This document shows, one piece after another, positions 327 to 995 of a DNA stretch of 24,800 bases (position 1 is its first letter; each line of letters opens with the position of its first letter). Origin of the DNA: a virus (taxonomy: Duplodnaviria > Heunggongvirae > Uroviricota > Caudoviricetes); IMG/VR virus record IMGVR_UViG_2872192773_000009. One strand, 5' to 3'. The position numbers and the translations under genes were made by a program. The notes beneath the pieces are model-generated. The model ran no database searches. It saw only the letters and a program-made list of their open reading frames with translations, and was not told the DNA's origin.

Positions 327-995
327 ATGGTGAAATTAATGAAAAAAAACACAGATGATGGGGCTAAAATTTACACACCACTTACCCTAAAGCTTTATGA
401 CTGGTGGGTTTTGGGAGTATCAAATCGGCTTGCATGGGGATGTCCTACAAAGGAACACCTTCTTCCACACTTTCTGGAACATTTAGGTAACAACCATCTG
501 GATATTGGTGTTGGAACTGGGTTTTACCTTACTCACGTACCTGAGAGTAGTCTGATATCTTTAATGGATTTGAACGAAGCTAGCCTGAACGCGGCATCTA
601 CAAGGGCTGGGGAATCAAAAATTAAACATAAAATTAGCCATGATGTTTTTGAACCTTATCCTGCGGCGTTACATGGTCAATTTGATTCCATTTCCATGTT
701 TTACCTTCTTCACTGCCTGCCTGGAAATATATCTACAAAAAGCTGTGTAATACGCAATGCGGCGCAGGCCTTAACTGATGATGGAACTCTATACGGAGCC
801 ACAATTCTTGGCGATGGAGTTGTGCACAATAGCTTCGGTCAAAAACTGATGCGCATTTACAATCAGAAAGGCATCTTTTCAAACACAAAAGATTCCGAAG
901 AAGGCTTAACACATATACTCTCAGAGCATTTCGAGAATGTTAAAACCAAGGTTCAAGGTACTGTAGTAATGTTTTCCGCTTCAGGGAAAAAATAG
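327..995 (+). CDS. Class I SAM-dependent methyltransferase, substrate unknown; low-GC cargo gene
   Basis: 222-aa ORF with Rossmann motif I LDIGVGTGFY (GxGxG), acidic residue after beta-2 (LMDLNE), motif II-like DSISMFYLLHCLP and motif III-like LTDDGTLYG. Codon usage is AT-rich, unlike the flanking phage DNA. Alternative start at 339 (MKKNTDD). Confidence 0.6.
   Translation: MVKLMKKNTDDGAKIYTPLTLKLYDWWVLGVSNRLAWGCPTKEHLLPHFLEHLGNNHLDIGVGTGFYLTHVPESSLISLMDLNEASLNAASTRAGESKIKHKISHDVFEPYPAALHGQFDSISMFYLLHCLPGNISTKSCVIRNAAQALTDDGTLYGATILGDGVVHNSFGQKLMRIYNQKGIFSNTKDSEEGLTHILSEHFENVKTKVQGTVVMFSASGKK

Follow-up and report, generated by a model that had tools for sequence, protein, structure and literature searches.

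A ybcY moron for a predicted methyltransferase in a Shigella prophage, beside a probable cargo slot occupied by an ipaH cassette

The window analysed here is a 24,800-nucleotide stretch of DNA recorded as a tailed bacteriophage (IMG/VR record IMGVR_UViG_2872192773_000009). Near its left end lies an open reading frame (ORF) for a predicted class I S-adenosylmethionine (SAM)-dependent methyltransferase, which is followed on the same (+) strand by ipaH, a gene encoding leucine-rich repeat (LRR) and NEL E3 ligase domains (Table 1). The spacer between the two genes measures 315 bp (996–1310). A first-pass annotation of this DNA had the common orientation right and the distance, given as 316 bp, slightly wrong; it also proposed that the AT-rich composition of both genes reflected a joint arrival, with an effector-associated role for the methyltransferase. 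The methyltransferase gene is AT-rich, having a G+C (GC) content of 40.5% compared with 49–50% for the remainder of the window.

Four Pfam profiles (Methyltransf_12, _23, _25 and _11) exceed their gathering thresholds with ORF 327..995, and the first of these scores 37.6 bits against a cut-off of 30 (E = 3.8e-9). An alignment of the window protein with 22 homologues contains 60 invariant columns, among them motif I (D59-I-G-V-G-T-G65), the acidic residue D81 and the pair H105-D106, and a ‘YLLHCLPG’ segment is conserved. The fold is directly supported by an AlphaFold2 model (predicted local distance difference test 86.5, predicted template-modelling score 0.85), which consists of an N-terminal helix pair and a seven-stranded Rossmann sheet with strands at residues 56–60, 76–81, 99–104, 119–125, 149–160, 202–210 and 213–221. 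By its motifs, modelled sheet and profile scores, the ORF reads as a complete class I SAM-dependent methyltransferase, as had been proposed from the core motifs. Its true start is probably the ATG at 339 (M5), which yields a protein of 218 aa, because residue 5 is where the homologues and the PHROG profile start and a GGTGA sequence lies 5 nt before this codon.

The window protein is residue-for-residue identical (100%) to the copies of enteroinvasive Escherichia coli (EIEC) CFSAN029787, E. coli O157:H7 F7508 and phage 2G7b, of which the EIEC and O157:H7 copies have the common RefSeq accession WP_000239881.1. It also matches phrog_2132 (7.9e-157), for which the PHROGs function entry is ‘unknown’. 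The counterpart in E. coli K-12 is ybcY (b0562) of the DLP12 prophage, located between the tfaD and tfaX fragments and beside appY and ompT. Nucleotide identity to the window is 96.9% for the DLP12 locus over 1,012 bp (tfa fragment, promoter, coding sequence (CDS) and hairpin) and 97.5% for the 2G7b locus. K-12 ybcY is annotated as a frameshifted class I methyltransferase, and thus a pseudogene, and it additionally carries ATA instead of the conserved M5 ATG (the equivalent of window 339–341). This near-identity and synteny with the DLP12 and lambdoid locus directly identify the ORF as the Shigella copy of ybcY, a gene for which annotations already exist in K-12 and thousands of RefSeq genomes, and in that respect it is nothing new in kind.

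We surveyed 5,426 complete E. coli genomes with megablast, using window 271–1310 as the query for the module and, in a second count, the methyltransferase CDS alone at a coverage of at least 80%. The module query matches more than 3,800 genomes at 97–99.9% identity, and the CDS is present in 3,799 (70%) at 4,877 places, with a maximum of four in a single genome. The segment also has matches in 17 phage records, and in 14 of these the match covers the entire module (for example, 2G7b, ev243 and the PhiR series including PhiR26_1). By contrast, any ipaH gene at all occurs in only 10 of the E. coli genomes (78 copies, 6–10 per genome). A gene that resides in harmless K-12, in O157:H7 and in free phages, and in so many genomes compared with the few that carry ipaH, is what the first-pass annotation had named as arguing against an effector-associated role, and by that test the effector association is refuted. 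The methyltransferase gene was not found on the Shigella virulence plasmids (pINV). Sequences 97–100% identical to this E. coli prophage DNA also occur in metagenome-assembled genomes labelled Bacillus or Planococcaceae and in HM037272.1 (labelled as a Bacillus thuringiensis plasmid), and these copies most likely represent contamination or mis-assembly.

The left flank of the gene is formed by an 89-codon fragment of a tail-fibre assembly (tfa) gene that matches only positions 76–130 of the 131-position Caudo_TAP profile. This fragment is collinear with the methyltransferase gene in K-12, O157 and EIEC, is annotated as ‘missing N-terminus’ in all three, and is present in 2G7b as well. Because its form is identical in K-12, O157 and 2G7b, the truncated tfa is a constant part of the methyltransferase module and not a scar of ipaH insertion. 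On the right, the sequence folds into a hairpin (−23 kcal/mol for window 990–1060, z = −2.64) that is conserved in K-12, 2G7b, O157 and Escherichia albertii and resembles a terminator at the end of the module.

The sequence shared with ipaH-free genomes stops at this hairpin. In all but nine of the matching E. coli genomes, the megablast match ends at window 1035–1038 (query 765–768). A junction alignment places K-12, 2G7b, E. albertii, O157 and the window on common sequence up to the 3′ foot of the hairpin, after which there are three unrelated continuations. In K-12, 2G7b and E. albertii the tfa 3′ end follows the module a second time, as a direct copy that belongs to a functional tfa gene. 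In O157:H7 F7508 the module continues into a four-gene cluster for a general stress protein, two ferritin-like proteins and a manganese catalase (7223–9436 of the compared locus); this strain also has a full-length tfa gene farther along, in the opposite orientation. For the window and EIEC the continuation is the ipaH2202 cassette, the left end of which is delimited at 1036–1039. This nucleotide-precise junction with three alternative cargoes indicates how effector genes such as ipaH2202 slotted into lambdoid prophages beside existing morons, and its exact position is useful for delimiting ipaH islands. With its own promoter, a closing hairpin (weak as a terminator), a GC content some way below the approximately 50% of its surroundings, an orientation opposite to the tail genes and a presence in 70% of E. 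coli genomes, the ybcY unit is by architecture a moron.

The neighbouring effector gene exceeds the NCBIfam IpaH_Shig cut-off (565 versus 550 bits) and matches the Pfam profiles NEL (6.3e-77) and LRR_TTSS, and the Prokaryotic Genome Annotation Pipeline (PGAP) names its EIEC counterpart ipaHe. Its length corresponds to class #3 (ipaH2202) of Dranenko et al., which is 547 aa long and MxiE-box positive (PMC9046306). The GC content of the gene is uneven, being 41.8% in the LRR half and 53.6% in the NEL half. Within the upstream region, window 1094–1192, in which the MxiE box lies, shares 77% identity with a segment approximately 120–220 bp upstream of ipaH9.8 on pINV plasmids. This roughly 100-bp stretch lies at a matching distance from the start codon in class #3 ipaH and plasmid ipaH9.8; in PMC9046306, such upstream similarity is reported only between ipaH classes #2 and #6. 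When up to three mismatches are allowed, the site at 1176–1192 is the only MxiE box in the window, and it lies downstream of the methyltransferase gene and in front of ipaH, which bears out the first-pass observation that no such box precedes the methyltransferase.

Two further features of ipaH were observed. Direct repeats within the gene (1647–1693 and 1707–1753, 87% identical) correspond to adjacent leucine-rich repeat units. In addition, a 1,329-bp insertion interrupts ipaH in S. flexneri SFBU1023 and in ‘E. coli’ ECMA0423, the latter having the locus twice, and on either side of the insertion stands a 9-bp duplication of window 1915–1923; the window ipaH is intact. The size of this insertion and the duplication are typical of IS10.

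Whether the two genes always travel together, a question raised in the first-pass annotation, receives different answers from the two sides. The ipaHe 5′ region occurs in nine of the surveyed genomes, all EIEC, and the methyltransferase gene lies upstream in nine of nine; the reverse does not hold, given the numbers of carriers stated above, and most of the 78 ipaH copies do not adjoin a methyltransferase gene. The linkage is therefore one-way, with ipaHe regularly beside ybcY and ybcY almost never beside ipaH. A joint acquisition of both genes as an AT-rich virulence island, in which the methyltransferase would have an effector-associated role, can draw on their common strand, short spacing and AT-richness, on the nine EIEC genomes, and on a modal upstream intergenic length of 315 nt for class #3 ipaH in Shigella (PMC9046306). 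We nevertheless find it barely credible, in that the homology breakpoint falls between the two genes, O157:H7 and a free phage have the identical protein without ipaH, the gene is present in 3,799 genomes and ipaH in only 10, the methyltransferase lacks an upstream MxiE box, the majority of ipaH copies have other neighbours, and low GC is common to relatives in Enterobacter, Klebsiella and Citrobacter. Since homology ends at 1035–1038 and the ipaH cassette brings its own regulatory DNA, ipaH appears to have entered separately; co-acquisition is refuted by this breakpoint together with the wide ipaH-free distribution.

The wider family is consistent with an origin of the low GC content that has nothing to do with ipaH. 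A protein database search returned 2,296 relatives, and an exhaustive profile search returned 420 representative clusters at E ≤ 1e-30, nearly all of them stand-alone proteins of 215–235 aa. Among GTDB species representatives there are 421 loci at 50–75% identity, distributed over Enterobacterales, Pasteurellaceae, Pseudomonas, Xanthomonadales, some Betaproteobacteria and others. The Salmonella and Enterobacter homologues inspected are single chromosomal genes among housekeeping genes. Homologues at 75% identity or less have no tfa gene within approximately 5 kb, and tfa adjoins only the copies of E. coli, Shigella and E. albertii. Citrobacter and Salmonella copies at 79–90% identity reside in accessory contexts with DinI, CdiI, PerC and transposase genes.

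Compared with the flanking DNA, the gene has a lower GC content in E. coli phages, Enterobacter, Klebsiella and Citrobacter, and an equal one in Salmonella, Yersinia, Erwinia, Pseudomonas and Proteus. Because relatives in other genera share it, the low GC is a trait of the methyltransferase's own lineage and is uninformative on any joint travel with ipaH. The AT-richness noted at first is thus real, and the common arrival that was read from it is not upheld. Ratios of nonsynonymous to synonymous substitution (dN/dS) between the methyltransferase and its relatives range from 0.10 to 0.19, values that directly support strong purifying selection on the family. Present in 70% of complete genomes and often in several copies, and with this signature of selection, ybcY is among the prophage cargo genes that E. 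coli carries most often.

The promoter-like site in front of the gene has a documented K-12 equivalent: a TTGATT-17-TATAAC site in the ybcY–tfaX spacer was recovered with RpoD holoenzyme by systematic evolution of ligands by exponential enrichment (SELEX) and carries an H-NS flag (Shimada et al., PMC3946193). The −10 hexamer is TATAAC in K-12, O157 and 2G7b and TATAAT in the Shigella and EIEC copies, where a C-to-T change at window 326 creates the consensus; this change may be a promoter-up mutation. Because the gene has its own sigma-70-like site and is missing a MxiE box, it very probably is not part of the type III regulon, in agreement with the first-pass expectation. Nor is it restricted to strains with Mxi-Spa, as its occurrence in K-12, O157:H7, free phages and most of the surveyed E. 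coli genomes attests.

Its present use in Shigella is a separate matter. The gene might be a silent passenger there, intact only through recent acquisition, silenced by H-NS and useless to the host or to the decayed prophage. The prophage around the gene is heavily decayed and ridden with insertion sequences (ISs), K-12 ybcY is frameshifted and has ATA at M5, the K-12 promoter has its H-NS flag (PMC3946193), and a K-12 ybcY deletion gave no phenotype in one Hha toxicity assay (PMC2408971). However, the window ORF is unbroken and does not differ from the phage allele, the family is under strong purifying selection, and the −10 element of the Shigella and EIEC copies is a perfect TATAAT. We therefore consider the silent passenger unlikely as an account of present use in Shigella, with which the identity of the gene as ybcY is in any case compatible.

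Homology and structure searches directed at the substrate class, as suggested in the first-pass annotation, returned only small-molecule and lipid methyltransferases, with scores that are low and nearly equal. These neighbours in fold and sequence are a bacterial phosphatidylethanolamine (PE) N-methyltransferase (8ys9), JHAMT (7ec0), UbiG, SgvM and C-methyltransferases that act on alpha-keto acids or form domains of polyketide synthases (PKS). Searches of PDB sequences with the single sequence and with a profile gave weak matches only (E ≥ 1.5e-5), to JHAMT and UbiG. No NCBIfam family scores above its cut-off; the nearest models (UbiG, RquA and CpaM) were rejected at 17.4 and 16.9 bits against equivalog cut-offs of 180 and 175. 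PADLOC returned nothing meaningful, so a defence system is unsupported, and a low hydrophobic moment of the N-terminal helix (0.15) gives no support for a membrane-anchoring helix. Our literature search found no functional study of ybcY, which is mentioned only as a neighbour of ompT, as a null in the Hha toxicity screen and as a promoter and H-NS entry, and it found nothing relevant on ipaH, methyltransferase and tail fibre in combination.

On these grounds we lean towards a small-molecule methyltransferase of the cytoplasm whose substrate is hydrophobic. The structural neighbours JHAMT (7ec0), UbiG (4kdc/4kdr), PE N-methyltransferase (8ys9), SgvM and CysG/BelI share with the model a Rossmann fold, an N-terminal helical lid, a GxGxG motif and a histidine after strand 4. 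The enzyme would bind SAM in the bacterial cytoplasm through GxGxG (61–65), D81 and D106. We infer the substrate class and the catalytic residues: the N-terminal helical lid (invariant Y24-D25-W26-W27 and W37) would cover the substrate, a small metabolite or lipid-like molecule that is probably hydrophobic, and H129 after strand 4 would be the likely base. Approximately 130 bp downstream of the homologue, 15 Pseudomonas species have an enoyl-CoA hydratase gene on the same strand, and in Yersinia a short-chain dehydrogenase/reductase (SDR) gene ends 102 bp upstream; these neighbours hint weakly at acyl or lipid chemistry, and neither is conserved outside its genus.

Other substrates can be imagined for an enzyme carried by phages. 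A nucleic-acid methyltransferase, whether it acts on RNA or is a phage DNA methylase that serves anti-restriction or epigenetic control, is very unlikely, as the sequence has no (D/N/S)PP(Y/F/W) or PC(Q/H) motif, belongs to no Pfam DNA-methylase family and, at 218 aa, has no target-recognition domain. Its best sequence and fold neighbours are small-molecule enzymes, and the remoter homologues are lone chromosomal genes without adjoining tail-fibre genes. That the gene adjoins tail-fibre genes in phages could instead suggest a protein methyltransferase whose target is either a host protein or a structural protein of the phage, for instance the tail fibre. This we regard as highly improbable, because the methyltransferase is on the opposite strand with a promoter of its own, the remoter homologues have no tail-fibre assembly gene nearby, and no protein methyltransferase is among the listed top fold matches. 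A more ambitious proposal, and a long shot at present, is that YbcY is a lysogenic-conversion enzyme captured by lambdoid phages from an enterobacterial chromosome, which would methylate a membrane-associated lipophile (the head group of a phospholipid, for example, or a quinone, an isoprenoid or a carboxylate resembling a fatty acid) and would thereby alter the envelope or redox state of the lysogen, Shigella included, the hairpin marking a recurrent slot that ipaH used.

Taken together, the locus is best explained as a self-contained AT-rich ybcY moron into whose adjoining slot an ipaH cassette was inserted later, so that the adjacency is historical and not functional; we assign this reading a probability of roughly 0.8. 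The moron is carried by many lambdoid phages and prophages of E. coli just past the side-tail-fibre genes and on the opposite strand, as a unit comprising the tfa remnant on the left, the sigma-70 promoter, the methyltransferase gene of 218 or 222 codons and the closing hairpin. The slot immediately after the hairpin has taken up different cargo in different lineages, and in the ancestor of the Shigella and EIEC prophage the ipaH cassette would have landed there with its own MxiE-box promoter. Expression in Shigella, which we infer, would depend neither on the phage late genes nor on the type III regulon, and H-NS would probably damp it. If this model is correct, the pairing of methyltransferase and effector is an accident of insertion history.

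Several observations weigh against this explanation. In K-12 and 2G7b no canonical T-run accompanies the hairpin, which a simple terminator scan did not call. The consistent ipaHe–ybcY linkage in Shigella and EIEC makes a functional tie that arose after the insertion formally possible, and H-NS may keep the methyltransferase silent in Shigella. Furthermore, no neighbour is conserved across genera among 74 homologous loci, and among 150 representatives there is no informative domain fusion, only unannotated N-terminal extensions and one fusion to RCC1.

Table 1 Positions of the features annotated in the 24,800-nucleotide window
Feature	Position	Strand	Basis or remark
C-terminal fragment of tail-fibre assembly (tfa) gene, left flank of ybcY module	1..270	-	Caudo_TAP E = 4.6e-26
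Sigma-70-type promoter-like site for methyltransferase, TTGATT-17-TATAAT	298..326	+	10/12 consensus matches
Predicted class I SAM-dependent methyltransferase, ybcY orthologue, phrog_2132 member	327..995	+	ORF, profiles, AlphaFold2 model, 222 aa
Hairpin then TTTCCTTT, terminator-like end of methyltransferase module	1001..1037	+	Folding, conservation
Junction ending the sequence shared with ipaH-free genomes; cargo insertion slot	1035..1038	.	blastn end points, junction alignment
Region upstream of ipaH, carrying its own regulatory elements (32% GC)	1036..1310	+	In only 9/5,426 E. coli genomes
MxiE box GTATCGTTTTTTTACAG	1176..1192	+	Exact match to pattern GTATCGTTTTTTTANAG
ipaH class #3 (ipaHe / ipaH2202), 547 aa, LRR and NEL E3 ligase domains	1311..2954	+	Pfam, NCBIfam, PGAP name, length
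DUF4376 side-tail-fibre gene of host prophage, 5′ part interrupted by IS at ~3613	3134..3748	-	Pfam DUF4376 6.8e-17
Transposase ORF of IS3-family element that begins at ~3613	3654..4688		
IS1 transposase	4763..5266		
160-aa ORF without Pfam match	5359..5841	-	Adjoins tape-measure-like gene 5909..7858
IS3-type transposase	10682..11500		
IS66 fragment	13442..14317		
Chromosomal mtfA gene	21604..22440		

Beyond ipaH, collinearity with EIEC CFSAN029787 ends at 3612, and that strain is without the IS that begins there in the window; the terminal 40 bp of this first IS recur at thousands of E. coli sites. A second low-GC stretch spans window 5100–6000 (35–40%). The region from 5900 to 24800 is a mosaic of decayed mobile DNA with myovirus-type tail genes, including those for the tape measure and the sheath (8634..10130), and it also carries a DUF968/HNH gene and two integrase genes (20392.. 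and 23291..). Because contractile-tail genes stand beside lambdoid side-tail-fibre remnants, this arrangement suggests that at least two different prophages have fused or been rearranged.

The closest known system is ybcY of the K-12 DLP12 prophage, which has the same locus, tfa fragment, CDS, hairpin and promoter (TTGATT-17-TATAA(C/T)). The two differ in that the K-12 copy is a pseudogene with tfa downstream, whereas the window copy is intact and has ipaH downstream. With phrog_2132 and WP_000239881.1 of lambdoid phages, the gene and its position beyond the side-tail-fibre genes are the same, and only the adjoining cargo differs. Morons and cargo slots downstream of tail-fibre genes are familiar from lom and bor of phage lambda and from the ‘exchangeable effector loci’ of enterohaemorrhagic E. 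coli (EHEC) lambdoid prophages. The ybcY unit resembles them in its autonomous promoter–gene–hairpin organization, deviant GC content, variable presence and location beyond the tail-fibre genes, and ipaH occupies just such a slot. Unlike those examples, ybcY delivers an enzyme as its cargo and not a surface protein or an effector of the kind for which the term ‘exchangeable effector loci’ (PMC8112680) is used.
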